IMG/VR virus record: IMGVR_UViG_3300037467_000874
Reading direction: 5' to 3' (one strand)
DNA length: 55,156 nt
Origin: an uncultured virus (IMG/VR IMGVR_UViG_3300037467_000874)
Lineage: Duplodnaviria; Heunggongvirae; Uroviricota; Caudoviricetes
Shown here piece by piece: positions 23,248 to 55,156 of this stretch; position 1 is the stretch's first letter, and each line of letters opens with the position of its first letter. The notes beneath the pieces are model-generated. The model made no database searches and had not been told where the DNA came from. It was given only the letters and a program-made list of their open reading frames with translations. The position numbers were made by a program, and so were the translations under genes.

Positions 23248-23253
23248 TTCATT

Positions 23254-24452: not shown

Positions 24453-24506
24453 TTTTATCCTCCAGTTTTAGCGAGAGTCATGTATCCACACAACTCTCGC
24501 TGTACA

Positions 24507-25325: not shown

Positions 25326-25339
25326 CTGGATTCCTCCAT

Positions 25340-29217: not shown

Positions 29218-30192
29218 TTATGTGCGGCATTCGTCACAATATTCATCTTCTTCATAAAGACTTTCTATTGTCTCAATGTTGCAATAGTCTTTAACGGAAT
29301 AAATATTTTTAATGTTAAATCTTTCGGCAAGTGGTCTAAACTTTTCATAATCAAACTTTCTATTATGAAACATCCCCTTTGCTCTGTGTAGTATTCCTGA
29401 ACGAAGAATATTTTTTCCTGTGAAGTATGGAATACCAAGTGTTTCACTGATAACTTTAAGTCTTCTGTATACAACTGAAGATTGAACAGCGCCACTGTAG
29501 TTATCAGTTTTGGTAACTGAGTTACGAAGTACATAATCATTTTCTACTAATGTTGTAAATTCTTTAATGTTTTCAGTGACTTCCATTTGACCATTTCTCT
29601 TTGTGTAAGTTTTTTCACTCAATGCTTCCTCGATCAATTTGATGGTTCTGTCAGAAACTTCAATGCTTCTTGCGAGCATTCCTTTTTCATTTCTTAAATG
29701 TAAGATGTTGTTTTTAAAGTCAACATCAAATTTGTTTAGATTTCTGATTTCACAAGAATCTTTACCCGCTACACCTTCGAAATATAGTCTGATAATTACT
29801 GCGTCTTGTGCATTCTCACAGAATCGCTCAATCTCTGTTATCTCTTTCTCAGTGAAGTATAACTTTACAGACTTGTCAACGAATTTGTCAAACCATTCTG
29901 AATCAACAAGCTTCAATGGATTCATGACAACCTTCTTGTATCCTGCATCAATGCACCAAGATATATAAGATGTTACAATCCTGCCATTTGATCTAGATAT
30001 GGCGCTTGTCAATGGTGCCAAATCTGAAAGAAAGTCCTCTATTTCACTCTTTGAGAATTCAGCTAAATCTTTGCCAAGAACTCTCTCTGTATCAGCACTT
30101 TTAATGAATATTCTCTTGTAGGTTGATTTAGAATCTTCATTTTCATACATATTTAAGAACAATTCTTTGATATCTGCATTGTAAAGCTCCAT
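29218..30192 (-). CDS. YopR/MrpR (SroF)-like phage repressor with tyrosine-recombinase fold
   Basis: Collinear with SPbeta YopR as I recall it: YNADIKE, KLYFT, IRLYFEGV, LVENDYV, ILRSG, YSVKDY. Lacks the catalytic Arg (GKDSCEI) and the HxxR motif. Confidence 0.8.
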   Translation of the reverse strand: MELYNADIKELFLNMYENEDSKSTYKRIFIKSADTERVLGKDLAEFSKSEIEDFLSDLAPLTSAISRSNGRIVTSYISWCIDAGYKKVVMNPLKLVDSEWFDKFVDKSVKLYFTEKEITEIERFCENAQDAVIIRLYFEGVAGKDSCEIRNLNKFDVDFKNNILHLRNEKGMLARSIEVSDRTIKLIEEALSEKTYTKRNGQMEVTENIKEFTTLVENDYVLRNSVTKTDNYSGAVQSSVVYRRLKVISETLGIPYFTGKNILRSGILHRAKGMFHNRKFDYEKFRPLAERFNIKNIYSVKDYCNIETIESLYEEDEYCDECRT

Positions 30193-40549: not shown

Positions 40550-40567
40550 TATCTCCCTTATTGGTTA

Positions 40568-41203
40568 TTAGACTGCAAGTTCAAATTTACAATATTGCTC
40601 CATGAATTCCTTGCACCATCCAAGGCAATAACTCTTGCCGCCAATATTAAATGGAGGGAATTCACCTTTAAGGTAAAATGTTCCAGCATCAACAATAACA
40701 GGAAGGCCGCTTTCATTTATCATGATATTACTTTTCTTTAAATCAGTAAGCTCCACGCCTCTTTTGTCAGCATGCTCAAACGCTTTCTCTAGGTGATATT
40801 TAAAAGCTGGAGAAACTTGAAGTTTATTCTTTAACTTATCGTATTCTACACAATAATCATCTAAAGAGTATCCAATTATTCTTTCCATAATCATAAAATC
40901 TTTATCATGGGCATATACTGTAGGGAAGTACGGAGAACCATTAAGAGCTTCAAGCATTTTACCATCATTGCAATATTGTTCAGCACCAGAAAAATATTTG
41001 ACAGCATAACCTTCATATTCAAATACTTCTCCATTACACCCACCACCAATTTGCTTAGTGAAGTAGCTTGACAAAGGTTTATACATACTTGCTCTTTCAT
41101 AGTTGTCAATGTAACCTTCTCTGCCTTTTTCATATTCTTCGATTGCCTTAGCTACATAATCAACAATGGATTGATTGATAGTTTGGACAATTTTCAAGGT
41201 CAT
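40568..41203 (-). CDS. Ser/Thr protein kinase-like protein (paralog)
   Basis: IGGGCNGEVF, YAVK, IMERI, TDLKKSNIM, VIVDAG. Confidence 0.85.
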   Translation of the reverse strand: MTLKIVQTINQSIVDYVAKAIEEYEKGREGYIDNYERASMYKPLSSYFTKQIGGGCNGEVFEYEGYAVKYFSGAEQYCNDGKMLEALNGSPYFPTVYAHDKDFMIMERIIGYSLDDYCVEYDKLKNKLQVSPAFKYHLEKAFEHADKRGVELTDLKKSNIMINESGLPVIVDAGTFYLKGEFPPFNIGGKSYCLGWCKEFMEQYCKFELAV

Positions 41204-41955: not shown

Positions 41956-42231
41956 TCAACTACTAATTTTAGCTGGATAATATTCTGCTTCGACTAGAAA
42001 ATTATAGGCTCTTTCAATAGAGCGTTTGCAAGCCTCTATAACTTGTTCATCAGTAGTAGAGTTAATTTTGTCAAGCATTCTATCAATTTGTTCAAGGTTT
42101 TGTCTAATCTTTCGTTCACAGAACATGCTTTCAAGTTTTAAATGCGGCATAGTCTTCCTGTCAGCCAATTCGAAATCACGTTTAAACATACTTTCGTCCT
42201 TGTAATGTTCATCAGAAATAAAATGCTTCAT
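41956..42231 (-). CDS. Hypothetical protein
   Basis: 91-aa ORF with AGGAG RBS. Confidence 0.6.
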   Translation of the reverse strand: MKHFISDEHYKDESMFKRDFELADRKTMPHLKLESMFCERKIRQNLEQIDRMLDKINSTTDEQVIEACKRSIERAYNFLVEAEYYPAKISS

Positions 42232-42631
42232 ATTAACACTCTCCTATTAGAATAATATGTAGAGCGGCAAATAGCCGCTCACTATTTTGTCAAGAAGTTT
42301 GGGACACTATAAAATTCCTTATATTGCTTGGCTTCACTGGGAAGCCGCATCTGTTTTCCCACGAAAATCGTTCTATATTATCCCACGAAACGCCAGTAAC
42401 TTTGGATTTATCTGTAATCTGCTTAGTTCCATTTGGATAATTAGTTTTTTTCGTAAGCATCTTCCATGATAATTACAATTTCTCTCTCGCCATCTGTAAT
42501 GGTTACATAGACTTCATTCGTTCCATCAATAAGAATTTTTTTGATAACGTCATACTCTTCCTTGGATACTTGAATCATTTTGTTACTACTCCCTTCTAAA
42601 TTGAACTCACATTTTATTTAGACTAAATTTA

Positions 42632-43072
42632 TTACCAATTATTATTAGCCGCTTTCTTTTGTTCTGCTTTAACCTTTTCTCTTGCTGTTTTGTTAGCGGC
42701 CCACAACCATTTTTTAGCAAGATCGCCATTCACATATTCCTGCACTTCGTCAATTGTTTTTGCCAAATTCTTAAAGAAGTTTTCCGTTCTATAATGAGTT
42801 TTAAAGTTCTTGAACTTTACTTCATCTTCCGTTTTAATCCAAAGTTGAACACGAACAGCATCCTTTCCAGCGTCACGTGCTTCATTGTTTTGTCCGCTTG
42901 GAATGGTGGAGTAGATAAGACAGTGAATTGCAGGATTGGCAGTAGATAAGTCATACATGATTTCATACACGCCTGTCTTCTTGACTGTTTTAACCTTCAA
43001 TTCATTCATGTGTGCAATTGCATCAAGTTCAAGCTCAAACTCTTCACGTGTGAATGGCACATAATTTGGCAT
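42632..43072 (-). CDS. Hypothetical phage protein
   Basis: 146 aa; YSTI...RDAGKDAVRV motif; TTGACA-17 bp-TAAAAT promoter at 43106-43134. Confidence 0.7.
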   Translation of the reverse strand: MPNYVPFTREEFELELDAIAHMNELKVKTVKKTGVYEIMYDLSTANPAIHCLIYSTIPSGQNNEARDAGKDAVRVQLWIKTEDEVKFKNFKTHYRTENFFKNLAKTIDEVQEYVNGDLAKKWLWAANKTAREKVKAEQKKAANNNW

Positions 43073-43159
43073 TGTCCATCTCTCCTTTGTTATTCTGTTA
43101 CTTGTATTTTATTCCCGATTCCTAATAATGTCAAGACAAATATAAGAAAAAATTTTAAT

Positions 43160-43175
43160 TGTTTCACGTAGAACA
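43160..43175. promoter_or_regulatory. parS: parS-like site (variant)
   Basis: TGTTTCACGTAGAACA. Confidence 0.65.
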
Positions 43176-43176
43176 A

Positions 43177-43722
43177 TTAATTATGTTTGCCAGTTTTAAA
43201 TTCTGTAACATACAGGCCATAACGTTCAATTTCAACTTTAGCCTTGTTCAAGTGCTCAACACCTTCACTCACTTTAGAAGAATCAGAATTGTCAAGCCCT
43301 TCTTTCAGTAGCAAAATAGCATTATATTGTTCAGTAGTAGCTTCAAGGAAGGCATCGTGAACATCTTTCAGGCGTTCAGGATAAGGTTGTGCCTTAAGAA
43401 TTTCAATATACAATCTGTATACTTCCGTAATATCAGAAAATTGCTTTTGCCACAATTCCGTATCTTTAAGACTAAGACTGTCAAGCAATTGTTTAAGCGC
43501 ATCCAGTGACGTTTGCATATTGTTCATGTAACTACTTAAATCATCAAGATATTTCTGTTCATCAGCAGTAATAAGCGAAGCGTCAACCTGTTCAACCTTT
43601 ACATTTTGTTGCAATGCAGATTTGTTGCTGTTTAGTACGTTTCCATTGCTACCACAAGCAGACAGTGCGAACGTCATTGCAATTGCAGTGCTAATAACAA
43701 AACCCTTTTTCACTTTAATCAT
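43177..43722 (-). CDS. Lipoprotein
   Basis: Signal peptide with lipobox LSA-C; helical body. Confidence 0.8.
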   Translation of the reverse strand: MIKVKKGFVISTAIAMTFALSACGSNGNVLNSNKSALQQNVKVEQVDASLITADEQKYLDDLSSYMNNMQTSLDALKQLLDSLSLKDTELWQKQFSDITEVYRLYIEILKAQPYPERLKDVHDAFLEATTEQYNAILLLKEGLDNSDSSKVSEGVEHLNKAKVEIERYGLYVTEFKTGKHN

Positions 43723-43784
43723 CTCCCTTAATTTTTTTGGTCACGCGACACAAAAGAGGCGCATAGTTAGCGCCTCTTCACTGT

Positions 43785-44027
43785 TTAATACACTTTCTTT
43801 TCTTCTCCTGTCCACGCCTTAACTTGTTCTTGGACCATTGAAATGACACCTTTTGTAAGCTTTGCAGGTTTCATCCCTTTGATAGTCGTGACTAGTATTC
43901 TGTCCTTTTGATCAGGAATTTGGAAATGGACATAATGCCGTTTGCCAGCCTTATCATACAGGAATGCATTGCCTACAATGATTGACTTCTCCATTGTCCA
44001 AGTCGCATTAGCCGTTGCCGTTGTCAC
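43785..44027 (-). CDS. Hypothetical protein between two repeat elements
   Basis: 80-aa ORF between cores at 43751 and 44069. Confidence 0.65.
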   Translation of the reverse strand: MTTATANATWTMEKSIIVGNAFLYDKAGKRHYVHFQIPDQKDRILVTTIKGMKPAKLTKGVISMVQEQVKAWTGEEKKVY

Positions 44028-44128
44028 TGTTCATCACTCCACGTTGTTATTTGCGGTTATCCGCTACACTATTATTCTATTAATGAGAGAGTAGCTTTAT
44101 GCTACTCTCTCAAATTATTTTTACTGCC

Positions 44129-44335
44129 TTACCATTCCATATTTTCAGAAATTACTTCCTCCAATTTAACCGCTACTTTTTCCCAAAATCTAATAAGTTC
44201 AATGTAATAAAAGGCAACCACTTCACTTTGTCGTCTTGCATGCAGTGTTCTCATGTCTTCTAATTGCTTCAATTCAGCTTTTAATTCTTCTCCATCTGGA
44301 AGTGCATTGAATACTTTATCTATATTGTTCATCAC
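44129..44335 (-). CDS. Hypothetical protein
   Basis: 68-aa ORF with GGGGAGG RBS. Confidence 0.6.
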   Translation of the reverse strand: MMNNIDKVFNALPDGEELKAELKQLEDMRTLHARRQSEVVAFYYIELIRFWEKVAVKLEEVISENMEW

Positions 44336-44362
44336 AATTCCTCCCCAAAGGGAAGAAGCGGC

Positions 44363-46417
44363 TTAAACCGCTTCTTCCTCATTTTCTTCAATTTCTTTGT
44401 CTTCATCAATAACAGCTTCTAATCCCATTTCTTCAATGAATCGACTAGCACCACAATCTTTTCCATTGAATGTTGACGTTGAAGAGAGGAAGCATAACTG
44501 TTTAGCACGTGTTACCAGCACATAAGCAAGTCTTCTTTCCTCTTCAATTGCTGAATCATCACCACAAATTTCCTTTTCAATTGACTTGTAGTGCGGAAGA
44601 AGATTTTCATTTACACCAATTCCAAAAACAACTTCAGCCTCTAATCCTTTACTACGATGAACTGACATCATCTGAACGCCATTGACACTAGAACGTCTTT
44701 TCTTAATCATCATGTCAACATATTTCACAAGACTGTCAAGCTTTTCAAAACGGCTTGCAAAGTGAATCATTTTGTTAACGATTGGATTTTCCTTTTCTTC
44801 TTCGTCTTCATCATCATTCTTTTTCAAATGTTCAGCATAACCATTTTCAAGCAAGTATTTAATTAAATCTGCCGCCGTTTTGTTATCTTCTTTCATAAGC
44901 TGTTTCATGCTGTTAACCAATACTTTGAAGCTGTTACTTGCTGTTTTTTCTGTAGGCGTAAGATTTACTTTGTTTACTGCATCCCACAAAGAACACCCTT
45001 TAACTGCCTTCAATTTAGCAAGGTATGCTTTACCTACATAGCGGCTTGGAGTATTGTATACTCGTTCAAATGCTTCATCGTCACTTGTATTCAGTACAAG
45101 ACGAAGGTATGACATAATATCTTTTACTTCTTTGCGCTCATAAAATGACATACCGCCATGAATAACGTATGGAATGCCATTAGAGATAAGAACATCTTCA
45201 AATTCTTTGTTTTGAGCATTGGTACGATAAAGTACAAACATGTCTTTGTATTCAATGCCTTTAATTTCTTTCAACGTCTTAATTTCCTCTACTGCCTCAT
45301 TTGCTTCTTCTGTTTCATTTTTATGGTGCGAGTAGAAAACAGCCTTGCCATCTGCTTGACTATGCGGAATAAGCTTCTTTTGAATTCTGAATTTGTTATT
45401 TTCAATTAGTTTGTTTGCAACATTCAGAATTTCAGGATGGCTACGATAATTATGCTCCAAGCCAATCATTTGAACATTTGAAAACAGTTTGTCAAATTGT
45501 ACGAAAGATTCAGGCGAAGCGCCACGAAAGCTATACATGGATTGATCGTCATCACCAACAACAAAAATGTTGTTTTCAGGATGAATAAGTTTTTTTGCTA
45601 ATTCGTATTGCGTAGGATTGTTGTCTTGTGTTTCGTCAATCATAATGTACTTAATTTTACCTTGATACTTTTTAAGAATTTCTGGATGTTCACGAAACAA
45701 ACGAACAGTGAGGAAAAGCATATCATCACCATCAATTGCAAGCCTTGCATATTTCATTTGTTCATATTGCTTGTAAAAGTTAATGTATGCCCACATTGTA
45801 GGAGAGGCATCCATTGCGTGTTCTGCTTCAAATTGATTGCAATCCATACCTTTGTTCTTTGCATTCCCAACTACTGCTAACAACACTTTGTTGTGTGCAT
45901 CTTTTAATGCCTTCTTTACGTCTGCTTCAATCATAAAGCTTTTAAGCAAGTTCTGTTTTACTTCTTCAGCAAACCACATTTGACTGTTACCAATAAGAAC
46001 ACCGGGATTTTTTGCATCACGCTTCGGATTGCAAAAGTCCTGCAAAGGATGGTTCATTGCTTTGTATTCACGTGCCAATACTTTATAGCCAAACGAGTGA
46101 GAAGTGCCACAAAACATTGCTTCTAAATCTGTTTTACTAATAAGAGGCTTCAAACGTTCTTCCATTTCAGTAGCGGCTTTTTTAGTGAATGTCATAAGTG
46201 CAATTGAATCAGAAATGATGTTAAGTACGTTAATCATGTACGCTGTTCGCGTAGTAAGTACGCGCGTTTTTCCACTTCCCGCTACTGCACAAATTTGAAT
46301 TGCACCTTCCGTTGCAAGAACAGCTTTCAATTGCGATTCATTCAATCCTTTGAGTAATTCATCTTTCATTGGTACTACAACCTTTTTTGGTGTACGTGCC
46401 ATCTTCATCATCTCCAT
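44363..46417 (-). CDS. pcrA: UvrD/PcrA-family SF1 DNA helicase
   Basis: AVAGSGKTRVL, TFTKKAA, IDETQD, VGDDDQSMYSFRGA, NYRS, LYRTNAQ, SVHRSKGLE, EEERRLAYVLVTRAK. Confidence 0.93.
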   Translation of the reverse strand: MEMMKMARTPKKVVVPMKDELLKGLNESQLKAVLATEGAIQICAVAGSGKTRVLTTRTAYMINVLNIISDSIALMTFTKKAATEMEERLKPLISKTDLEAMFCGTSHSFGYKVLAREYKAMNHPLQDFCNPKRDAKNPGVLIGNSQMWFAEEVKQNLLKSFMIEADVKKALKDAHNKVLLAVVGNAKNKGMDCNQFEAEHAMDASPTMWAYINFYKQYEQMKYARLAIDGDDMLFLTVRLFREHPEILKKYQGKIKYIMIDETQDNNPTQYELAKKLIHPENNIFVVGDDDQSMYSFRGASPESFVQFDKLFSNVQMIGLEHNYRSHPEILNVANKLIENNKFRIQKKLIPHSQADGKAVFYSHHKNETEEANEAVEEIKTLKEIKGIEYKDMFVLYRTNAQNKEFEDVLISNGIPYVIHGGMSFYERKEVKDIMSYLRLVLNTSDDEAFERVYNTPSRYVGKAYLAKLKAVKGCSLWDAVNKVNLTPTEKTASNSFKVLVNSMKQLMKEDNKTAADLIKYLLENGYAEHLKKNDDEDEEEKENPIVNKMIHFASRFEKLDSLVKYVDMMIKKRRSSVNGVQMMSVHRSKGLEAEVVFGIGVNENLLPHYKSIEKEICGDDSAIEEERRLAYVLVTRAKQLCFLSSTSTFNGKDCGASRFIEEMGLEAVIDEDKEIEENEEEAV

Positions 46418-46453
46418 TAGCTTGTTTTATATTGCATTTGTCTAACTCTTATT

Positions 46454-46483
46454 AGTATACACGTATCCCGTTGAATTATGCAA
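46454..46483 (-). promoter_or_regulatory. Probable sigmaA-type promoter of the helicase gene
   Basis: TTGCAT-18 bp-TATACT. Confidence 0.5.
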
Positions 46484-46533
46484 GTCCATCATCATTTATT
46501 TTTGTATTTGTGTATACCGCGACACTGCTCGCA

Positions 46534-46824
46534 TTATGCGAGCACGTGAATTGAATCAATGATTGGACTATCTTCATCGTTAAGATTGAATATTCCGTAA
46601 TAATCAATTTCTTCGCCCAACTCATGAATTCCCCATTCAATCAATTCCTTCGCCACACGTTCATTGCTCCAATGTTTAGGCGTCGAATATGATTCGCCTT
46701 CAAAGACTTTGTTGTCTTCCATTTTAACAACGAAGCGCCAATAAGTACGTGTAATATCTGAATCAACTTCAACTATTTGTCCTTTAGACATACCACATTC
46801 GAATACAATAATCATTTCAATCAT
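46534..46824 (-). CDS. Cassette gene, hypothetical
   Basis: Between cores 46525 and 46852; stop codon lies within the hairpin. Confidence 0.7.
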   Translation of the reverse strand: MIEMIIVFECGMSKGQIVEVDSDITRTYWRFVVKMEDNKVFEGESYSTPKHWSNERVAKELIEWGIHELGEEIDYYGIFNLNDEDSPIIDSIHVLA

Positions 46825-46881
46825 CCCCTAAAGTTTAATGGTACCGCAACACAAGCGGACAATTAATGTCCGCTGTTTAGG

Positions 46882-47319
46882 TTAAATCATTCTATTCAGT
46901 TTCATTGAAGCAAGCAAGCGTAATGCATTTTCAAACAATAATGTAAGTTGAACATCTGTTTGATTGTAGTCGAATGGAATCTTTTTGCCGTCATACGTCC
47001 CAGCATTATATCCAACACGTAAACTAACATCCTTTTCCCATGTCTTTCTATTGTAAGTATCAGAAATTGCAATTTTCCATCCATCACTACTCCATGAAGT
47101 AGGACGATCGGCAATGCGAATCAATGCACCATAACAGCGGTCATTATTATTAATTGCATCTTTTGTTTCCACAACTTTAAAGATTGATTTAAATTCTGTC
47201 ATGTGCTTGTAACAGATGGAAAGGAAAAGTTGTTCAACTTCTTCCTTTCTTACATGTGTAGCATTAACAGCGTTTTGTTTTTCTTCTGCACGTTTTACTA
47301 CATCTGCTAACAATTTCAT
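46882..47319 (-). CDS. Cassette gene, hypothetical (start moved to the second Met)
   Basis: The MDDK prefix in the ORF track derives from the repeat's RBS segment. Confidence 0.7.
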   Translation of the reverse strand: MKLLADVVKRAEEKQNAVNATHVRKEEVEQLFLSICYKHMTEFKSIFKVVETKDAINNNDRCYGALIRIADRPTSWSSDGWKIAISDTYNRKTWEKDVSLRVGYNAGTYDGKKIPFDYNQTDVQLTLLFENALRLLASMKLNRMI

Positions 47320-47348
47320 TTTATCATCCATCCTCTATTGTTTGATAA

Positions 47349-47364
47349 TGTTCCACGTGGAACA
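47349..47364. promoter_or_regulatory. parS: parS site inside repeat element
   Basis: TGTTCCACGTGGAACA. Confidence 0.85.
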
Positions 47365-47392
47365 ATGCGAAGTCCGCAACACAAAACCCGCT

Positions 47393-47692
47393 TTATTCGG
47401 CGGGTTTAGTAATGTTTTTAAAATATTCTTGGAATTCTTCTAATCTTCCAGCCTTTTGAATCTCACCAATTGTTAATGTTAAATCATCGAATGTAGCAGT
47501 TTTTACATATTCTAATCTGTCTGCAAGCATCTTTTCCTTTGACCCATTAGTCTTGTTCTTTGCAATTACACATTTTTCTCTAATATGATACTCCAGCATA
47601 TTTCTACCGAAATATTTTTTACAATGTGGACATTCTGCTTTTGTATAAGCCACTTTTCTTCTGCCCATTTTACAACACCTTCCATTCTCCAT
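47393..47692 (-). CDS. Cassette gene with zinc-finger-like motif
   Basis: CPHCKKYF...LEYHIREKC; stop in hairpin loop; likely start MGRRK. Confidence 0.7.
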   Translation of the reverse strand: MENGRCCKMGRRKVAYTKAECPHCKKYFGRNMLEYHIREKCVIAKNKTNGSKEKMLADRLEYVKTATFDDLTLTIGEIQKAGRLEEFQEYFKNITKPAE

Positions 47693-47951
47693 CTTTGTCC
47701 TTATACTTCATGTAAGTACATCCTGCATATCCTGCCGCCCAGTCAAGCGGCTGAAATGCTTTTGATTCGCCTGCATTAATCCAAGACGTTTCACCATCGT
47801 AATACAGATTGTCATCGTCATCATAAAGTTTGATTTTTGTTTTTTCTTCTTTAGGCAATTCATCCCATTTTTTTTGATCGAAGTTAGCAGATTGAATGTT
47901 AATCTTTTTCTTGTCTAGCCAATCATAAGTAATACGCCACATATTCATCAT
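47670..47951 (-). CDS. Cassette gene, hypothetical
   Basis: KLYDDDDNLYYDG...PLDWA..YAGC motif. Confidence 0.75.
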   Translation of the reverse strand: MMNMWRITYDWLDKKKINIQSANFDQKKWDELPKEEKTKIKLYDDDDNLYYDGETSWINAGESKAFQPLDWAAGYAGCTYMKYKDKDGEWKVL

Positions 47952-48001
47952 TCCTTTGTTTTATAATGGTAACGCGACACGCGCCAATTAAGGCGCTATG
48001 C

Positions 48002-48250
48002 TTACAAATTATCTTCATCCTCTTCAACACTGGAATGAATGTTTGATATTGCATTGTCCACGTCCTGCATTGCTTCGCGCAATGTCGTAAGTGCTTCATA
48101 TAAATTCTGTAAATCATTAGCGTAATAGTCCGCTTCTTTCGTTTTATCCAGTATATCGGAAATTTTGTTTTCCAGCGCTTCAACCTTGTCAATGTTTCTA
48201 ATAAACTTGTTTGCCTCTTCACCTAATGCTACAATTCTTTTCGCGTTCAT
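48002..48250 (-). CDS. Cassette gene, coiled-coil acidic protein
   Basis: Between cores 47980 and 48296. Confidence 0.7.
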   Translation of the reverse strand: MNAKRIVALGEEANKFIRNIDKVEALENKISDILDKTKEADYYANDLQNLYEALTTLREAMQDVDNAISNIHSSVEEDEDNL

Positions 48251-48312
48251 TTTATCATCCATCCTTCATTGTTATTTGTGGTATGTACCACGACACAAGC
48301 CGCATAAGCGGC

Positions 48313-48522
48313 TTAGTCAATTTGTCCTCTAACGTCGAATGCAATTTCATGCTGTTCTGATATAGCTACAACACGTGTAAATTCTACTGTTTCGCCTTCA
48401 ATAATTATACCAAAATTATACATGTTGCTTGCAATTTGTTGTGCATTCTCATAACCAGTATGGAAATGTTGGGCATGAATTACCCTATCATTTACAAAAC
48501 AAACGAAATACCAATTCTGCAT
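48313..48522 (-). CDS. Cassette gene, hypothetical (start MQNWY)
   Basis: Flanked by identical 27-bp direct repeats. Confidence 0.65.
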   Translation of the reverse strand: MQNWYFVCFVNDRVIHAQHFHTGYENAQQIASNMYNFGIIIEGETVEFTRVVAISEQHEIAFDVRGQID

Positions 48523-48577
48523 ATCAATCATTCCTTTTTCTGTTATTTGTGGTATGTACCACGACACTAGCGGCTGT

Positions 48578-48667
48578 TTATGCCGCTAATTTGTAGAATA
48601 ATAAGAATAATCCATTAATGAATGCTAGGACCAATAAGCTACGATTTAAACGATAGTTGTAATTCAT
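48578..48667 (-). CDS. 29-aa hydrophobic peptide
   Basis: MNYNYRLNRSLLVLAFINGLFLLFYKLAA; GGAGG RBS; ATGA overlap; stop in hairpin loop. Confidence 0.5.
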   Translation of the reverse strand: MNYNYRLNRSLLVLAFINGLFLLFYKLAA

Positions 48668-48807
48668 TTAACAGCCTCCATTAACTCTTTATTGCTGTTC
48701 TGTTTAGCACGGCACCATAAACATAATGTATTATTTGGTATGTTGCTTGTAATTCGTTCTTTGCATCCAACACAAGTATAAGTATGTTTTACTTTAATCT
48801 TTTTCAT
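48664..48807 (-). CDS. 47-aa zinc-ribbon-like cassette gene
   Basis: MKKIKVKHTYTCVGCKERITSNIPNNTLCLWCRAKQNSNKELMEAVK, after the element RBS. Confidence 0.6.
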   Translation of the reverse strand: MKKIKVKHTYTCVGCKERITSNIPNNTLCLWCRAKQNSNKELMEAVK

Positions 48808-48911
48808 CATCATCTATCCTTTACTGTTTAATGTACCGCGACACAAGCCGCATGTAAAACATGCGGCTGTTTGTGTTATTTCATATCTGTAATTTCGCCG
48901 CGACTAGAAAA

Positions 48912-49166
48912 CTAGTCGCCAATAAATGATAACTGTAATGCCACTGATTTAATAGCGGAAATAATTTCATTAATCATAGTGTCATTAACTTCTTCAACGT
49001 CATAGTATTCTAATTCGATTAACTCTTTTAAGCTTTCGTGTTCTAGTCCTCTTACTGGTATGTAGAAAGCTTTAGAATATTGTTTGTCAAATAGTACAAC
49101 ATCTGTATTGCCAGCCATTTCAACGTAAACGTTAATTATTGCTGTTTTAATGTTTTTCATTTTCAT
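48912..49166 (-). CDS. Cassette gene, hypothetical
   Basis: Between cores 48844 and 49198. Confidence 0.7.
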   Translation of the reverse strand: MKMKNIKTAIINVYVEMAGNTDVVLFDKQYSKAFYIPVRGLEHESLKELIELEYYDVEEVNDTMINEIISAIKSVALQLSFIGD

Positions 49167-49317
49167 CCATCCTCTATTTTATAATGGTCACGCAACACTG
49201 CCGCGACATGCGCGGCATACTGTTTTACTCGTTAATTGTTTAATTTGTTCAATTGTCATACTTGCCATATTCATCATTCCCTTACTGTTATTTGCGGTAT
49301 GTCCGCAACACTTGGAT

Positions 49318-49333
49318 TGTTTCACGTGAAACA
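49318..49333. promoter_or_regulatory. parS: parS site (perfect palindrome) forming the element hairpin
   Basis: TTGGAT-TGTTTCACGTGAAACA-ATCCAA. Confidence 0.9.
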
Positions 49334-49347
49334 ATCCAATAAAACAT

Positions 49348-49557
49348 TTAAAGCATTACAAATGTTTCGTTCTTGCCTTCTGTTACGAATAAACTTAAAC
49401 CGTCATAATGTACATAGAGTAAATCCATGCCGAATGCTTGACGTTTATGTAATACACGTTTAACTGTTTTCTTTGTTCTGTTAAAGAGTGAAACAGGAAC
49501 AATAATATCTACACTTTGACCAACTTTGTTTAATGCGTTATCTGTTACTTTAATCAT
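49348..49557 (-). CDS. Cassette gene, hypothetical
   Basis: Between cores 49311 and 49597. Confidence 0.65.
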   Translation of the reverse strand: MIKVTDNALNKVGQSVDIIVPVSLFNRTKKTVKRVLHKRQAFGMDLLYVHYDGLSLFVTEGKNETFVML

Positions 49558-49627
49558 TTTATCATCCATCCTTTGTTATTGTAGTTTGACGCAACACAAG
49601 CCGCATGTAAAACATGCGGCATTCTAT

Positions 49628-49879
49628 TTATATTTGATAAACTTTCTTTAATGCTTTCTTTGCTAATGTTTCAATATGACTATCGTTACAGTCATATTTT
49701 TTGTACCATTCACAAATAGTATTGCTTCCAACTACTGCATATAAGCAATCCCATGCAAGCCTTGTTTCAAAGTCCTTAAATTTTCCACTTTCTTTCAATG
49801 CTATCGCGTGTTTTCCAATCTTCTCTTTAATTTCTTCCATTTTATCAACTACATTTTGAAGCTCATTTTGCAATTTCAT
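49628..49879 (-). CDS. Cassette gene, hypothetical
   Basis: KDFETRLAWD...CNDSHIET; between cores 49597 and 49919. Confidence 0.75.
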   Translation of the reverse strand: MKLQNELQNVVDKMEEIKEKIGKHAIALKESGKFKDFETRLAWDCLYAVVGSNTICEWYKKYDCNDSHIETLAKKALKKVYQI

Positions 49880-49946
49880 TTTTCATCCATCCTTTAACTG
49901 TTTAGTGGTAACGCGACACGCCACGTTATATACGTGGCATTGTGTT

Positions 49947-50234
49947 TTATTCGACAATGTAGCAATATTCTACAATCCATCGCGTTCCTTCACTTGGAAG
50001 CAATCTCATGTACAAGTCAAGGCGAACGCCTAAATCTATACCGTCCAAGCAGTTGCCAATAAGAGACATGCCAATCATACTATCATCGAACCATTTTGCA
50101 TCGCTTGAAACTTTGTAAGAACGTTCTTCATGTGTGTAAGTATTCCCGTCAAAACTCTTTTGATCGAATACAATAACAGCCGTTTTCCATTTATCTTTAC
50201 GCTGTTTCAATTCTTCAAGCGTCAATTTAATCAT
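49947..50234 (-). CDS. Cassette gene, hypothetical
   Basis: SLIGNCLDGIDLGVRLD...WIVEYCY. Confidence 0.75.
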   Translation of the reverse strand: MIKLTLEELKQRKDKWKTAVIVFDQKSFDGNTYTHEERSYKVSSDAKWFDDSMIGMSLIGNCLDGIDLGVRLDLYMRLLPSEGTRWIVEYCYIVE

Positions 50235-50281
50235 TCATTCATCCATCCTTTTTGTTTTAGAGTGTAACGCGACACAAGCGG

Positions 50282-50413
50282 CTATTTAGCCGCTAAAAAT
50301 GAGATAGCATAAATGATAGCAATTAAAGCTAATGTAAATGGGATAGATATAATAGAAATAAAAATAATTAAATCCATTTTCTTATAGTTTTTCAATTCTT
50401 GCATAGTCATCAT
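50282..50413 (-). CDS. 43-aa single-TM cassette peptide
   Basis: MMTMQELKNYKKMDLIIFISIISIPFTLALIAIIYAISFLAAK; stop within the hairpin. Confidence 0.6.
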   Translation of the reverse strand: MMTMQELKNYKKMDLIIFISIISIPFTLALIAIIYAISFLAAK

Positions 50414-50473
50414 TCCTATTCTGTTTAGTTTGGTTTAACGCGACACGGCACACTGTTTAGTGTGCCTAGTGTT

Positions 50474-50902
50474 TTAAACATCGTCCCCACAAACTTTACA
50501 ACCAAAATCTCCACATTCACATTCTTCTTCTTCAATTTTAAACCATCCAATACAAGCTCCATCGCCTTCACTACTGCCGAAATAATAGCCGCTAGGCGCA
50601 ATGTTGTTGAAATAATTATAAACGTCTTCATTCCAAACATAAGAAGCTGATTCATATGCACTTTCTTGAATTGTAGCTTCTCCATGATATTGTGACATGA
50701 ACAAGCCATGACTTTCAACATATTCCATGTCCTCAATGTTGAAGCATGTAAGGATAGAGGCGCGTAATTCTTCGTTAGCTTCCATGCCTTCTAATAAATC
50801 ATACGCTTTAGGTAATATGTGCTGAAGATTGCATGTGCCATCGCTTAAAATAAATCCACCATAAGATTTAACAATAGATTGAAAGTGTTCTACTTTAGAC
50901 AT
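50474..50902 (-). CDS. Cassette gene, hypothetical
   Basis: APSGYYFGSSEGDGACIGWF motif. Confidence 0.75.
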   Translation of the reverse strand: MSKVEHFQSIVKSYGGFILSDGTCNLQHILPKAYDLLEGMEANEELRASILTCFNIEDMEYVESHGLFMSQYHGEATIQESAYESASYVWNEDVYNYFNNIAPSGYYFGSSEGDGACIGWFKIEEEECECGDFGCKVCGDDV

Positions 50903-50954
50903 TTGTCATCCATCCTTTGTTTTTGTTTTAGCGGTTTTACCGCGACACAAGCCG

Positions 50955-51143
50955 CTATATATTAGCGGCTGTTTCTTTAAATAGTTGTTTAAGGCATTCA
51001 TAACATAGTGGAATACGCTGTTTATTAACAACACTTTCAAATGTCACTTCATGTGTAGATATTGCATGATGGCAAGAAAAGCAAACTATTTTAACTTCTT
51101 TGCCTTCGTAAAAGCTAGTTTCAATTTCATTAACTTTAACCAT
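50955..51143 (-). CDS. Cassette gene with CxxC...CxxC
   Basis: CFSC...LCYECL; stop within the hairpin. Confidence 0.7.
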   Translation of the reverse strand: MVKVNEIETSFYEGKEVKIVCFSCHHAISTHEVTFESVVNKQRIPLCYECLKQLFKETAANI

Positions 51144-51208
51144 TTTTCATCACTCCATCTATTTTAGTTGTCACGCGACACGCCACGCTGTTTAGCGTGG
51201 CAAGATTA

Positions 51209-51562
51209 TTACATGAATACTTCAATTTCAAAGAATGATTTATCTTTATAAAGAACACGTAAAACTTTACTTATTCCATACGTTTTCAATTCGAATTTTT
51301 CGAAGTTGCCGTAAAAGTTTTCTGTACCGTCAAATAATCCGCTGTTACGTTTTCTTAATTGAATGCAAAAACCTTCGCGATTGCATGATGTCTGAATTTC
51401 AAACGAATGAACGAAGCCAGCAATAACAACAAAAGTTTCATCGCTGTTAGGCATGCATGTTTTCATATGCAACTTTAGCGGTTTCCCCACTGCTTGCACT
51501 AAAAACGCTTCTACATGTTCGAAGCCTTCAACGTCTGTAATAAGTTGTTTTTGTTCTTGCAT
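51209..51562 (-). CDS. Cassette gene, hypothetical
   Basis: Between cores 51181 and 51604. Confidence 0.7.
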   Translation of the reverse strand: MQEQKQLITDVEGFEHVEAFLVQAVGKPLKLHMKTCMPNSDETFVVIAGFVHSFEIQTSCNREGFCIQLRKRNSGLFDGTENFYGNFEKFELKTYGISKVLRVLYKDKSFFEIEVFM

Positions 51563-51616
51563 TTGTCATCCATCCTTTAAGTTTTGTCGGCAGTGCCGCA
51601 ACACGTTTCACGCGAT

Positions 51617-51632
51617 TGTTCCACGTGAAACA
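51617..51632. promoter_or_regulatory. parS: parS site inside repeat element
   Basis: TGTTCCACGTGAAACA. Confidence 0.85.
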
Positions 51633-51643
51633 TTTTGTTTTGT

Positions 51644-51877
51644 TTAAATTTTCTCAAATAAATAAGCTGGCTTAACTTCGTATTCAATATATCCATATAC
51701 CTGCATACTTGAAATGCCTTCCCGTGCTGGTACTTCACTTTCTTCTATTTCCCATTTTGTCAATGGAGGGAAATAATTTGTTTTAACTGCAACATCAAAT
51801 AATCCATCGCTACGATGGGCAATTGATACATGCACATATTTATTAATTTCCACTGTTTTCCTTTTGATAATTTCCAT
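51644..51877 (-). CDS. Cassette gene, hypothetical (start MEIIKR)
   Basis: Start adjusted to follow the element RBS. Confidence 0.65.
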   Translation of the reverse strand: MEIIKRKTVEINKYVHVSIAHRSDGLFDVAVKTNYFPPLTKWEIEESEVPAREGISSMQVYGYIEYEVKPAYLFEKI

Positions 51878-51948
51878 ATTCATCATTCCTATTCTGTTTA
51901 GAGTATGACGCAACACAAGCCGCATAAATACTATGCGGCTGTTTAGGT

Positions 51949-52236
51949 TCAATCTAATTGAACGATTGTAACATTTAATGATGAAAGATATTTTCCGTGA
52001 TTACCTCCACTTACATAGTCATCTAAAAAACCATCGTTTTCTATTTCTTTTCTTTCTTCTTCTGTTAAAAATAATCCATTCCAATTTTGAGATTCTGCAT
52101 AATCAATAGCAAAATCTAATGCATCTTGTTCATAGTCAGCATTAACAATAACGTAATTAAATTCAGATAACCAAACTTTGTATGAGTGCTTCCAAAACTT
52201 CGACGTTTCGTTAACATAGATAAATTCTGTTTTCAT
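51949..52236 (-). CDS. Cassette gene, hypothetical (start MKTEFI)
   Basis: EQDALDFAIDY...GGNHGKYL; start adjusted to follow the element RBS. Confidence 0.7.
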   Translation of the reverse strand: MKTEFIYVNETSKFWKHSYKVWLSEFNYVIVNADYEQDALDFAIDYAESQNWNGLFLTEEERKEIENDGFLDDYVSGGNHGKYLSSLNVTIVQLD

Positions 52237-52291
52237 TTTCATCCATCCTTTAAGTTTTAGTGGTAACGCGACACAATGGAACATTTGATAA

Positions 52292-52307
52292 TGTTCCACG
52301 TGAAACA
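52292..52307. promoter_or_regulatory. parS: parS site overlapping element hairpin
   Basis: TGTTCCACGTGAAACA. Confidence 0.85.
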
Positions 52308-52309
52308 TT

Positions 52310-52480
52310 TTAACTAATTGATTTATTCCATTTTTCAATAATGACAAGCTTTTTAACTTTTTCGTCAACTACGTAATATGAAATGTCTTTGACTGTAAAC
52401 CCGTTTTTCTCTTTTGTTTCAATAAAAGAATCTACCTCATTCGAATTTACAACATGTTGTTCTTCTACGTATAATCTCAC
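52310..52480 (-). CDS. 56-aa cassette gene (GTG start)
   Basis: MRLYVEEQHVVNSNEVDSFIETKEKNGFTVKDISYYVVDEKVKKLVIIEKWNKSIS; flanked by identical 39-bp direct repeats. Confidence 0.65.
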   Translation of the reverse strand: MRLYVEEQHVVNSNEVDSFIETKEKNGFTVKDISYYVVDEKVKKLVIIEKWNKSIS

Positions 52481-52546
52481 TTTTCATCCATCCTTTAAGT
52501 TTTAGTGGTAACGCGACACGGCCCGCTGTTTAGGCGGGCACGTCTT

Positions 52547-52759
52547 TTAATCCTCTTCCTCTTCTTCTGTTTCCTCTTCTGTTTCCTCTTCCTCTTCAAA
52601 AGAGAAATCACATTCATAATGTGCGAATGCTTCCAGCGTTTCGCATGATGCGTCGCCGCTTAAATAATGATATAGAATGTATTCTAATATTTCTGTATCA
52701 GAAATACCACGTTCCCGCAATGCTTCCAGTCTTCTCACGGCTTCATTTCTCATGCTCAT
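52547..52759 (-). CDS. Cassette gene with poly-acidic tail
   Basis: C-terminus EEEEETEEETEEEED. Confidence 0.7.
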   Translation of the reverse strand: MSMRNEAVRRLEALRERGISDTEILEYILYHYLSGDASCETLEAFAHYECDFSFEEEEETEEETEEEEED

Positions 52760-52809
52760 TGTTCATCCATCCATTCTATTTTTTAGTGGTAACGCGACAC
52801 TGCCCAAAT

Positions 52810-52825
52810 TGTTTCACGTGGAACA
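52810..52825. promoter_or_regulatory. parS: parS site forming the element hairpin
   Basis: GCCCAAAT-TGTTTCACGTGGAACA-ATTTGGGC. Confidence 0.9.
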
Positions 52826-52841
52826 ATTTGGGCCTAGTTGT

Positions 52842-53069
52842 TTAGCCTTTTGGGGAACATGTTTCAAGCCATACAGGATGGCCCCATGAATAACATTGCT
52901 TTTCTGTTATGTCGCCGTCTTCATATAATGCCTGCACAAAGTTATTCCATGCCATGCGACGTGCTGGTTTATCAATAATTCCATTAGATTCCAAACCGCG
53001 AATAAGCCCCGGCAGTATTTCCATTTTAAACATTGTTTCCGCTTCTACTTTAGTCATACTATTCATCAT
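52842..53069 (-). CDS. Cassette gene, hypothetical
   Basis: DKPARRMAWNNF...DGDITEKQ..W.HP motif. Confidence 0.75.
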   Translation of the reverse strand: MMNSMTKVEAETMFKMEILPGLIRGLESNGIIDKPARRMAWNNFVQALYEDGDITEKQCYSWGHPVWLETCSPKG

Positions 53070-53131
53070 TCCTTTTATGTTATTGCGGTATGTCCGCTAC
53101 ACTGCCCGCTGTTTAGGCGGGCCTTACAATT

Positions 53132-53521
53132 TTAATAAGCATTAATACCATATTTGCGGCACAATACAAGGAATTCACGAATAATCAAGGAATTATAAAA
53201 CGTTTGTTCTTCATTACCTTCGCGTTCCTTGTATTCTTCGCCGCAATTTTCAAACCATTGTTGCAAAAGTGCGCTAATTGCATAGTGACGATATTCAACG
53301 CTAATTTCAGAAGGCAAGCCCATGAACCAATCAGCCATAGCCGCCCATCTGTTAGGATTCTGTTTCTTTTCATATGCATCGTACCAGTTATTGAAACCGT
53401 CTACAACGTTTTGTAATTGTTCTTTAACGTCATTTGTTTCTTCATCTGACATAATGTATAAAATATGTTCTTGTACTTGTTCCTTGAATGCTTTACGTGT
53501 CGTTACTGCCATGTTCATCAT
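53132..53521 (-). CDS. Cassette gene, hypothetical
   Basis: DWFMGLPSEISVEY motif. Confidence 0.75.
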   Translation of the reverse strand: MMNMAVTTRKAFKEQVQEHILYIMSDEETNDVKEQLQNVVDGFNNWYDAYEKKQNPNRWAAMADWFMGLPSEISVEYRHYAISALLQQWFENCGEEYKEREGNEEQTFYNSLIIREFLVLCRKYGINAY

Positions 53522-53544
53522 TCCTGTTCTGTTTAGGCTAGAAA

Positions 53545-53560
53545 TGTTTCACGTGAAACA
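53545..53560. promoter_or_regulatory. parS: parS site (perfect palindrome) inside repeat element
   Basis: TGTTTCACGTGAAACA. Confidence 0.9.
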
Positions 53561-53603
53561 TTTTCCGCAACACTGCCCACTATATCAATAGTGGGCAACC
53601 TGT

Positions 53604-53804
53604 TTAAGAAAAACGGCTTATATTAACAACATAACCAGCCTCACAAAGTAAATCTATTACTTTTGATACCTCTTGCATCGAACTAACGACATGACTACCA
53701 TTAACAGCAACGAAATATAAAATATCATAAATGCGTCCTCCATTTGACATTTCGTATGCCTCTTGTTCACGATTTATAAAAGCTTCGCATTCTACTACAT
53801 ACAT
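53604..53804 (-). CDS. Cassette gene, hypothetical
   Basis: Between cores 53573 and 53843. Confidence 0.65.
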   Translation of the reverse strand: MYVVECEAFINREQEAYEMSNGGRIYDILYFVAVNGSHVVSSMQEVSKVIDLLCEAGYVVNISRFS

Positions 53805-53851
53805 TGTTCATCCATCCTCTATTGTTTAGTGGTACCGCAACACAAGCCGCA

Positions 53852-54082
53852 TTAAAATGCGGCATAGTCATTATCGAAGTCTTTAGCAATCAATAGTTCA
53901 GCGCTATACAATCCGCTGTTCATGCTATCCAGTAAATCGCCGCATGACATTTCATAACCAAATTTGCTATGCTTCCATGTTCCTGCTTGCGTTCGTGTAA
54001 AGTAGACAGGAAAACCAATACCCGTATCCATTTTTACATACGCGTTTTTCTGTTTAAGCTGTTCCATTGTAAATTGTGTCAT
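53852..54082 (-). CDS. Cassette gene, hypothetical (start MTQFT)
   Basis: Flanked by identical 36-bp direct repeats; stop within the hairpin. Confidence 0.7.
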   Translation of the reverse strand: MTQFTMEQLKQKNAYVKMDTGIGFPVYFTRTQAGTWKHSKFGYEMSCGDLLDSMNSGLYSAELLIAKDFDNDYAAF

Positions 54083-54152
54083 TTTATCATCCATCCTCTA
54101 TTGTTTAGTGGTACCGCAACACGCTACGCTGTTTAGGCGTAGCTTATTAAGG

Positions 54153-54419
54153 TTATTCAATAGCGGCAAGCCATGGCGAACCATATTTAACGCATTCATC
54201 CAAATATACGCGCCTGCCTTGAATCGTGAAATATTGACGTTCTTCTTTGTCCTCTTGAATTTTAAATTTGCGAATATCTCCGCTGTCAATAGATGCAGTG
54301 ATGATATCAAAGTCTAAATGGTTAATAGTCCAAACTTCGATTTTAGCATGATACGAAGTTGCGCAAAGTGCATAAGGCTTGCTAGGTTGTTCTTTCATTT
54401 CCTCTTTTGTAAGTCTCAT
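54153..54419 (-). CDS. Cassette gene, hypothetical
   Basis: RQYFTIQGRRVYLDEC motif. Confidence 0.7.
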   Translation of the reverse strand: MRLTKEEMKEQPSKPYALCATSYHAKIEVWTINHLDFDIITASIDSGDIRKFKIQEDKEERQYFTIQGRRVYLDECVKYGSPWLAAIE

Positions 54420-54473
54420 TGTTCATCCATCCTTTAAGTTTTGTCGGCAGTGCCGCAACACGTTTCACGCGAT

Positions 54474-54489
54474 TGTTCCACGTGAAACA
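54474..54489. promoter_or_regulatory. parS: parS site inside repeat element
   Basis: TGTTCCACGTGAAACA. Confidence 0.85.
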
Positions 54490-54496
54490 TTTTTAT

Positions 54497-54658
54497 TTAA
54501 CTGTTTACTTGTTTTACTTTGCCTTGTTTGTATTTGTCCGGCGGATATGAAAGACGAACAGTAGAACGAGCACTTTTTTCGCTTTTCACATTATGTACAG
54601 TTATCCATTGTCCACTATATTTATTGCCGATTTCCCATACTGCTACTTGATACGTCAT
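54497..54658 (-). CDS. 53-aa cassette gene
   Basis: MTYQVAVWEIGNKYSGQWITVHNVKSEKSARSTVRLSYPPDKYKQGKVKQVNS, after the element RBS. Confidence 0.65.
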   Translation of the reverse strand: MTYQVAVWEIGNKYSGQWITVHNVKSEKSARSTVRLSYPPDKYKQGKVKQVNS

Positions 54659-54704
54659 TTGTCATCCATCCTTTAGCTGTTTAGTGGTCACGCAACACAA
54701 GCCG

Positions 54705-54917
54705 CTAAAAATCAGCGGCCATTTCTTCCAATCCTTTAACTACACTTTCGACTGTTAAGCAAGTGTAACCATTTTCGAATTCATAGCGCTCTTTGCCTGT
54801 AAAAGAATCAGACATGTCGTAAACAATTCCGAATGGCGTATGAACGGCGTTCCAATCGACATTATATTCAATAGCCGCATTATCTAACGCTTTAAGCAGT
54901 TTATTATTGATTATCAT
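54705..54917 (-). CDS. Cassette gene, hypothetical
   Basis: Stop within the hairpin; between cores 54698 and 54975. Confidence 0.7.
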   Translation of the reverse strand: MIINNKLLKALDNAAIEYNVDWNAVHTPFGIVYDMSDSFTGKERYEFENGYTCLTVESVVKGLEEMAADF

Positions 54918-54948
54918 TTTTCATCCATCCTCTATTTTTAGGCTAGAA

Positions 54949-54964
54949 TGTTCCACGTGAAACA
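54949..54964. promoter_or_regulatory. parS: parS site inside repeat element
   Basis: TGTTCCACGTGAAACA. Confidence 0.85.
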
Positions 54965-54986
54965 TTCCGCAACACAAAAGCCGCTG

Positions 54987-55154
54987 TTATTCAGCGGCTG
55001 TTTCTTCGTTTCTATCATTGAAATATTTCGTATACTTTTGCAATTCGTATTCCGTTAATTCATCATATGTAGTACGTTTCATGAATTCCAGAACAGCCAT
55101 ATTGTCAATGACTACCAAACGAAATAATGGGCTATCATCCATGCGCGTTCCTTG
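54987..55154 (-). CDS. Partial cassette gene (5' end probably outside the window)
   Basis: Open frame ...QGTRMDDSPLFRLVVIDNMAVLEFMKRTTYDELTEYELQKYTKYFNDRNEETAAE*, with stop in the hairpin loop. Confidence 0.6.
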   Translation of the reverse strand, partial: QGTRMDDSPLFRLVVIDNMAVLEFMKRTTYDELTEYELQKYTKYFNDRNEETAAE

Positions 55155-55156
55155 TT

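Follow-up and report, generated by a model that had tools for sequence, protein, structure and literature searches.

A small-gene array with a repeated hairpin-and-core element in an uncultured SPbeta-like phage

In T4-type phages, the elements known as PeSLs are stop-to-start composites in which a stem-loop and a ribosome-binding site (RBS) surround unrelated small open reading frames (ORFs) in a plastic region of the genome; their crossovers fall at different places within the element, the existing recombination machinery has been proposed to produce them, and, in the excerpts from which this and the other published systems are cited here, they carry a strong sigma-70-like promoter and a working terminator (PMC2839356, PMC4122927). 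Integrons, attC sites, and CALINs also bring together co-oriented unrelated small genes, with one structured site each and expression from upstream (PMC8618304). We analyzed a 55,156-nt stretch of an uncultured Caudoviricetes virus (IMG/VR IMGVR_UViG_3300037467_000874), hereafter the window, in which a run of small genes is separated by a repeated element composed of a hairpin, an 8-nt core, and an RBS. The window is part of the 169,219-bp virus record G000, whose ends overlap by ~182 nt, and all gene and element coordinates refer to the window unless prefixed with C1, the G000 contig.

The early transcript of phage T7 is cut by RNase III and punctuated by repeated structures. Phage SP82 likewise has a single early transcript punctuated by repeated structures and cut by RNase III (PMC4838370). 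The present locus differs from both in its short perfect hairpin with an unpaired core and in having ~27 sites rather than a few. The conAn, put, and EAR RNAs are large, poorly conserved cis-acting RNAs near the start of long operons in Gram-positive mobile elements; conAn2 spans 260–600 bp downstream of the conAn1 gene in an operon that contains canonical terminators (PMC8191782), whereas the leader found here precedes all genes and has no known partner gene. In SPbeta, which belongs to a related phage group, the SPBRE is a repeated intergenic element, and an MrpR homologue is also present in our phage; the SPBRE is, however, a dispersed promoter operator for which the available excerpts report no hairpin and RBS module (PMC10516654), a comparison based on layout. 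Our array is PeSL-like in layout and plasticity but not in its promoters: no consensus promoter and mostly no U tract were found, while a fixed 8-nt core and, upstream, a long leader are added. In contrast to integrons, it has no IntI, no GTTRRRY box, and no bottom-strand bias, and the element has its own RBS.

Architecture of the element, the array, and the leader

On the coding (-) strand, the element is composed, in order, of a hairpin, a GTGTYGCG core, a spacer, a TAAA block, and an unusual RBS. The core, searched as GTGT(C/T/A)G(C/T)G, occurred in 29 copies between 43,744 and 54,975 (- strand), with a 30th just past the window (C1:168768, - strand), in agreement with the at least 29 copies counted in the original prediction; these 30 cores lie within 11.7 kb, where 200 Markov simulations averaged 0.8 cores and never exceeded 4, and the opposite strand of the same region contained none. 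The narrower GTGTYGCG had 2+2 occurrences in the remaining 155 kb. Among the 29 window cores, 13 were GTGTTGCG, 12 GTGTCGCG, 2 GTGTAGCG, and 2 GTGTCGTG. A hairpin with at least four G-C pairs ending -2 to 4 nt from the core was present at 28 of the 30 copies, as against 5 of 487 random positions; a hairpin had been described at every copy, which does not extend to copy 44069 (copies are named by their higher coordinate). The G+C-rich stems span 5–13 bp and keep their pairing while their sequence varies (15 distinct stem starts among 28). The core is followed after 7 to ~27 nt by the TAAA/AATAAC block, the long post-core stretches usually forming a second stem, and then by an A-rich stretch and an RBS-like word that was found downstream of all 30 cores, the TAAA lying only 5–10 nt ahead of it. 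The core and the following CRC-TAAAC also form a loose inverted repeat. The word GGATGGATG occurred 16 times in the array and once elsewhere, compared with 0 and 49 for AGGAGG.

BLASTN of the array and leader against 50,697 phage records returned no match, the element patterns had 0 loci in viral contigs including IMG/VR, core arrays were found neither in 10 cultured relatives nor in 14 further records, and nothing in the window reached the Rfam gathering score. Single element-pattern matches in one metagenome and one genome contig, situated in DNA of 62% and 53% GC that lacks an array, were taken as chance. A Chi-like pentamer reached 3.5 per kb in the array versus 0.83 elsewhere and was rejected, since GCGGC was equally enriched and the excess is therefore not separable from the stems.

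The main array (46480..55156, - strand) consists of 27 small genes and a cut first gene with 27 element copies. A core was located 37–63 nt upstream of the start in 26 of the 27 genes between 46.5 and 54.9 kb, consistent with the earlier statement that nearly every gene from 46.5 kb is flanked by the element. The distance was 37–46 nt in 23 of these 26 genes and 58–63 nt only in the three with an inserted parS-like hairpin (gene starts were set by hand, and two are off by ~1 codon). Cores without further peculiarity are situated on the - strand at 54691..54698, 51909..51916, 51174..51181, 50439..50446, 50268..50275, 49912..49919, 49191..49198, and 46845..46852, together with 53095..53102, which reads GTGTAGCG. 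The core at 47973..47980 (-) heads a gene pair, and the final core of the array (46518..46525, -) has a degenerate RBS and no gene of its own; the two outlying cores are at 44062..44069 (-), without an adjacent hairpin, and at 43744..43751 (-), with one. A gene per unit was present in nearly all cases, but the unit headed by the core at 49304..49311 (-) contains only a ~14-codon stub (49224-49268). The array had also been said to continue past the window edge, and it does so by a single further copy and the beginning of one gene (the first array gene, C1:168823-169023) and not by a long continuation. The window tail at 55065-55101 and the contig-end copy of this gene differ in a few letters, and both alleles occur among the sequencing runs introduced below. 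BLASTP among the 27 array genes gave no mutual match at E 0.01, as expected from genes described as mutually unrelated. The suggestion that they serve host takeover or anti-defense was not substantiated: no array gene exceeded a Pfam cut-off, and the PHROG matches of seven genes at E 0.01 were all of unknown function.

Strict sigma-A sites on the coding strand numbered 0 in 46,500-55,156 and 18 in the rest of the window (Poisson p 0.035), confirming the reported lack of consensus promoters within the array, and a looser scan of 42,000-55,156 yielded 43 sites versus 49.9 in shuffles, i.e., no excess. A UvrD/PcrA-type helicase (44363..46417, -; Pfam and synteny with relatives) closes the array as a syntenic anchor, and a sigma-A-like promoter read by eye (TTGCAT, 18 nt, TATACT; 46455..46484, -) precedes it. 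Upstream of the array lies a 3.2-kb stretch without long ORFs, the last part of which is a 776-nt structured, ORF-poor leader (C1:167999-168774) with 52% GC compared with ~35% for the genome. The leader folded better than 20 of 20 shuffles (z -4.1), and the Rfam search gave it no family match and only weak sub-threshold ones. A non-consensus sigma-A-like promoter was seen by eye near C1:167970. A C-run found in the Kirov terminal repeat and at base 47 of Tsamsa recurs ~2 kb before the leader, which hints, weakly, that the array may lie close to the packaged genome end.

Neither the leader nor a set of parS-like palindromes had featured in the original prediction. Thirteen such palindromes (up to two mismatches to the consensus allowed) were clustered in 18.5 kb, with one lone match far off, and 8 of the 11 in the window lie no more than 33 nt from a core. 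They are located in the second stem at cores 54968..54975 and 53566..53573, in the first hairpin at 54454..54461, 52793..52800, 51597..51604, and 49304..49311, overlapping the first hairpin at 52267..52274, and downstream of 47375..47382 (all -). None were found in the related phages G002 and G003. The five parS sites of phi29 serve spore entrapment, and the likeness consists of several host parS-like sites in a phage genome; here, there are 13 instead of five, clustered and mostly within element stems (PMC2731898). With phi29 as precedent, a similar role is plausible for the palindromes, separate from the main job of the element. Core 53566..53573 heads the gene at 53132-53512 (126 aa), with its palindrome at 53543-53560, and homologues of this gene are present in PBC2, Kirov, G002, and G003, as well as, outside any such array, in L120-L122 and L125. 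In PBC2 (L016:8255) and Kirov (L019, 159623), a parS-like palindrome also stands just upstream of the homologue, which suggests that gene and palindrome travel together. Separately, vB_BcoS-136 has four perfect parS-like palindromes within 1 kb (29256-30261).

Reassortment of elements and genes

Across copies, first-hairpin similarity and post-core similarity were uncorrelated (Mantel r 0.003, p 0.44). The pairs 52519/52274 (core of the former at 52512..52519, -), 54122/53843 (54115..54122 and 53836..53843, -), and 48567/48296 (48560..48567 and 48289..48296, -, both GTGTCGTG, the former with a compensating change in its second stem) are identical over 39, 36, and 27 nt, respectively, from core base 1, with 0 nt of identity before the core; copies 52519 and 54122 carry hairpins unrelated to those of their partners, and unrelated genes follow in all three pairs. 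Copies 49597 (49590..49597, -) and 48844 (48837..48844, -) have 23 nt in common upstream and diverge from core position 5, and the entire element of copy 54461 equals copy 51604 over 71 nt. Other pairs have only the TAAA-to-RBS tail in common.

The array was found in eleven soil and rhizosphere runs from 2025, perhaps from one campaign and six of them possibly the source samples, of which four were examined; the variant joints are contig data at depth 2–6, among the matches listed. In run X9, a 734-nt contig (depth 5.3) comprised 50,940-51,595 (656 nt, no difference), 5 new letters, 54,423-54,448, and 53,471-53,517, the pieces being joined on the basis of equal depth and lengths summing to 734. 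The last two pieces are 26 nt from the tail of another copy and a 47-nt stretch of a gene located seven units off. In this contig, gene 53,132-53,512 immediately follows gene 50,955-51,143, with one switch at the 3' edge (50940) of core 50941..50948 (-) and a second at the RBS. X9 also contains the reference arrangement upstream of gene 53,132-53,512, and the junction, known from contigs only, could reflect a circle, a duplicated segment, or a strain with a rearranged array. Joints at 48,299, next to copy 48296 (X10, X11), 50,251 (X9, X10), and 49,904 (X9) lead into element versions foreign to the reference, some with unknown intervening sequence. Joints made up of parS-like words only (47364-47371, 49313, 51611-51632, 52306, 52807-52830, 53541-53561, and 54969) were set aside as likely derived from other bacteria. 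Half-element reassortment and the X9 contig support the original proposal that modules are shuffled through junctions at the element; the standard RBS that it envisaged is supported as well. Since junctions also fall at the TAAA and RBS blocks, short-homology recombination is favored over a site-specific process.

Relatives and possible modes of action

The closest complete genomes, G002 and G003 (terminase large subunit 72% and 71%), contain a small-gene run that ends at the same helicase and has one strict promoter inside it in G002 and none in G003; a promoter like the one before our helicase is also found near the end of both arrays (read by eye). Their repeat comprises a bulged hairpin of ~26 pairs, then an A-rich stretch, and then AGGATGAT, with no shared core, and has the classic long bulged stem of B. 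subtilis RNase III sites (mean 26 pairs), as far as these are described in the excerpts available. Folding favored the mRNA strand in 16 of 18 (G002) and 10 of 11 (G003) hand-picked copies, by ~4.3 kcal/mol (~0 when shuffled), and this preference held in 20 of 22 and 14 of 16 of all 45–135-nt gaps. In its own right, this repeat (L114:350-10030; L115:11494-L116:7500) represents a separate, undescribed array element of RNase III-like shape. The G002 and G003 leaders are 670–720 nt long, ORF-poor, homologous to each other, and more stable than shuffles (z -4.4 and -3.4), and Rfam gave nothing beyond weak sub-threshold matches for them; a word resembling the Firmicute rRNA boxA is exact in G002 and has four mismatches in G003 and in our leader. 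The leader RNA of these two phages (L113:11335-12130; L115:10090-10835) shows shared blocks; between these two sequences, both partners differ in 18 of 107 predicted pairs, and the RNA is a candidate for a new large RNA. Both arrays begin with a conserved 219-aa gene (L113:12133-12792; L115:10838-11494), a candidate partner protein without a Pfam or usable atlas match, which occurred only in G002 and G003 among 14 records (G000 not among them); atlas searches with the first array gene of our phage and that of G002 gave no usable match either. In a phage-like Paenibacillus larvae plasmid, the leader measures 620 nt (z -4.0), and no conserved repeat was visible.

Other relatives fill the same slot differently. 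In Tsamsa and PBC2, a near-identical sigma-A promoter precedes many small genes (13 and 11 strict sites), and repeated promoter-like words occupy the equivalent slot in these two, vB_BcoS-136, and G007. With a crude gene caller, 14 of 32 G002 pre-helicase genes matched G003, with two order changes, compared with 10 of 14 from the helicase onward; gene content, which the original prediction proposed to compare among relatives, is thus fluid. By the same calls, our phage has 2 of 27 array genes in common with G002 and likewise with G003.

On balance, we favor, with reserve, a reading by analogy in which the array is an early accessory-gene operon punctuated at the RNA level, its punctuation marks doubling as swap points. 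Host RNA polymerase would initiate once, upstream of the 776-nt leader, and the folded leader would permit read-through of ~8.7 kb by processive antitermination. In the resulting RNA, every hairpin would mark and shield the 3' end of the preceding gene, the unpaired GUGUYGCG would be recognized by a nuclease or an RNA-binding protein, and the fixed spacer with its GGAUGGAUG-type RBS would provide a ready translation start for each new gene. Genes would be gained, lost, and reordered via short-homology recombination at the core, TAAA, or RBS, as in PeSLs, and the parS-like palindromes would have a separate DNA function in binding host ParB/Spo0J and would occupy places that tolerate a stem. The argument for an RNA step is that G002 and G003 keep the layout and are promoter-poor, with a different hairpin on the mRNA strand, which suggests that a single long early message is punctuated at the RNA level. 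For the same reason, of the two functions first proposed for the element, processing or expression is better supported than a dedicated recombination site.

Several observations weigh against this account. The first hairpin shows no strand bias (the top strand folds better in 15 and the bottom in 11 of 28) and is not extended into a long RNase III-like outer stem (p 0.61), so the RNA step here rests on analogy, and the G002/G003 repeat on which that analogy is based is not homologous to our element. Nor did nhmmer or BLAST detect homology between our leader and those of G002 and G003. At least five U follow the stem in only 8 of 28 hairpins on the sense strand, so there may be little to antiterminate. 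The presumed start promoter is non-consensus in this phage, G002, and G003 and is missed by the strict scan, and no nuclease or partner protein was picked out. Most variant joints are short, at depth 2–6, and their position at elements partly reflects that nothing but element-like DNA can align, which leaves the X9 contig as the one strong case; one of the joints (53359-53462, depth 2.4) is situated within a gene.

A broader version, which we put forward tentatively, would see an undescribed two-part RNA system in a clade of large Bacillales phages, composed of a 700–800-nt read-through leader and a lineage-specific repeat cut or bound at each gene so that separate messages are released, with captured ORFs becoming plug-and-play; in our phage, a factor distinct from RNase III would read the signal sequence-specifically, perhaps at the DNA level too.

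It seems unlikely that each copy is instead a non-sigma-A promoter (activator-dependent or served by an alternative sigma factor), making the element a true PeSL with a novel promoter and the hairpin as an attenuator. The promoter-like words in the same slot of Tsamsa, PBC2, vB_BcoS-136, and G007 and the near-constant core-to-start distance fit such a promoter. However, a six-frame search of the genome gave no sigma-70 region 2 match (control positive in 10 of 14 genomes), the core-to-TAAA spacing varies from 7 to ~27 nt with the TAAA only 5–10 nt from the RBS, and the closest relatives have an mRNA-strand hairpin and no common core.

We regard as somewhat less probable still that the element is a non-canonical single-strand recombination site, an attC counterpart yielding cassette circles through the tyrosine recombinase at C1:142105-143157. 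The R' box at integron crossovers is GTTRRRY; none of the 13 GTT-containing cores among the 29 matched it. Although sister copies change identity within the first 0–4 nt of the core and the X9 junction lies at the core, producing the gene adjacency expected of a circle or a tandem duplication of seven units, identity switches also occur at the TAAA and the RBS, and the second stem found at the X9 junction does not occur in the reference, meaning that the junction did not arise simply from two reference copies. There was no bias toward the bottom strand, the mean DNA energies of the second stem on the two strands being -2.27 and -2.34. The recombinase shows R, K, H-x-x-K, H, and Y by eye, but it is ~27 kb from the array and far under all NCBIfam cut-offs. 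Similar recombinases are Tyrovirus core genes in the excerpts of PMC9703825, and Tyroviruses have no core array (0 in 10 genomes). The best integron integrase score (TIGR02249, 27.4 versus a cut-off of 265) fell on the MrpR-like protein, and searches of the genome for reverse transcriptase and HUH Y1 genes found none, with positive controls. The integron-like label hence holds for the layout and not for the site or its enzymes, and, of the co-occurring recombinase, HUH nuclease, or reverse transcriptase that had been suggested as a check, only one tyrosine recombinase was found.

It is improbable that the core and its imperfect inverted arm form a DNA operator, SPBRE-like, through which an MrpR-like protein or another phage repressor silences the early genes in the prophage. 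The window does encode an MrpR-like protein of the tyrosine-recombinase fold (29218..30192, -; Pfam MrpR domains and a PDB match to the solved MrpR at E 5.6e-26), the repeated intergenic element to which MrpR binds in SPbeta is 15 bp long (PMC10516654), and the core and CRC-TAAAC could serve as the arms of an inverted repeat. As described in those excerpts, however, the SPBRE lies in promoter regions at about ten dispersed places, whereas the cores form one block with no promoters to repress; in addition, the arm spacing varies by ~20 nt, and the conserved hairpin shape is left unexplained. Finally, a leader acting in trans as a guide or ribozyme that recognizes the cores and cuts or joins there is very improbable: a large structured RNA without an Rfam match stands directly before the array in three phages, but its pairing with the cores was equaled by 4 of 30 shuffled leaders, and there was no intron family match.

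Genomic setting and biological meaning

By its sequence, the phage is a distant Tyrovirus/SPbeta-like siphovirus. Its terminase has 46–52% identity to those of Sundance, Tsamsa, PBC2, and kin and is 70% identical to that of the P. larvae plasmid, a likeness from which the host is probably a spore-forming Bacillales. The genome encodes the MrpR-like protein and the one tyrosine recombinase, which are its two matches to the tyrosine-recombinase fold, as well as Replic_Relax, tubulin, Gp157, and AAA_24 proteins. A module at C1:132883-143157, composed of tubulin, an M23 peptidase, a 930-aa protein, Replic_Relax, and the tyrosine recombinase, resembles the plasmid-like Tyrovirus block. Ten tRNA genes are situated at C1:117348-122821, and an ORF at C1:151204-151605, distant from the array, has a Pfam match to the integron cassette protein VCH_CASS14. 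In the window, a tandem pair of Ser/Thr kinase-like genes occupies 39863-41203, and an RNA repair cluster at 22369-26650 contains genes for an RNA ligase, an RlaP-like nucleotidyltransferase, and AAA_33/HD polynucleotide-kinase-like proteins in a row. An identical second assembly (L004) ends short of the array.

The leader and the element are undescribed in the literature searched (most subscription journals were outside its scope), where neither was found; the general kind of PeSL-type modular array is already known. The comparison suggests that one phage family has at least three solutions, all at the same genomic position, for expressing a fast-changing set of small early genes: each gene has its own promoter, its own long RNA hairpin, or its own short hairpin with a fixed core, the latter two both accompanied by a large folded leader. 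The array singles out 27 proteins, most of them unknown, as probable early accessory factors. If confirmed, the finding would extend the known phage RNAs by a large RNA and by a repeated RNA signal, both new, and would offer a reporter-testable case of unrelated genes becoming instantly expressible modules.

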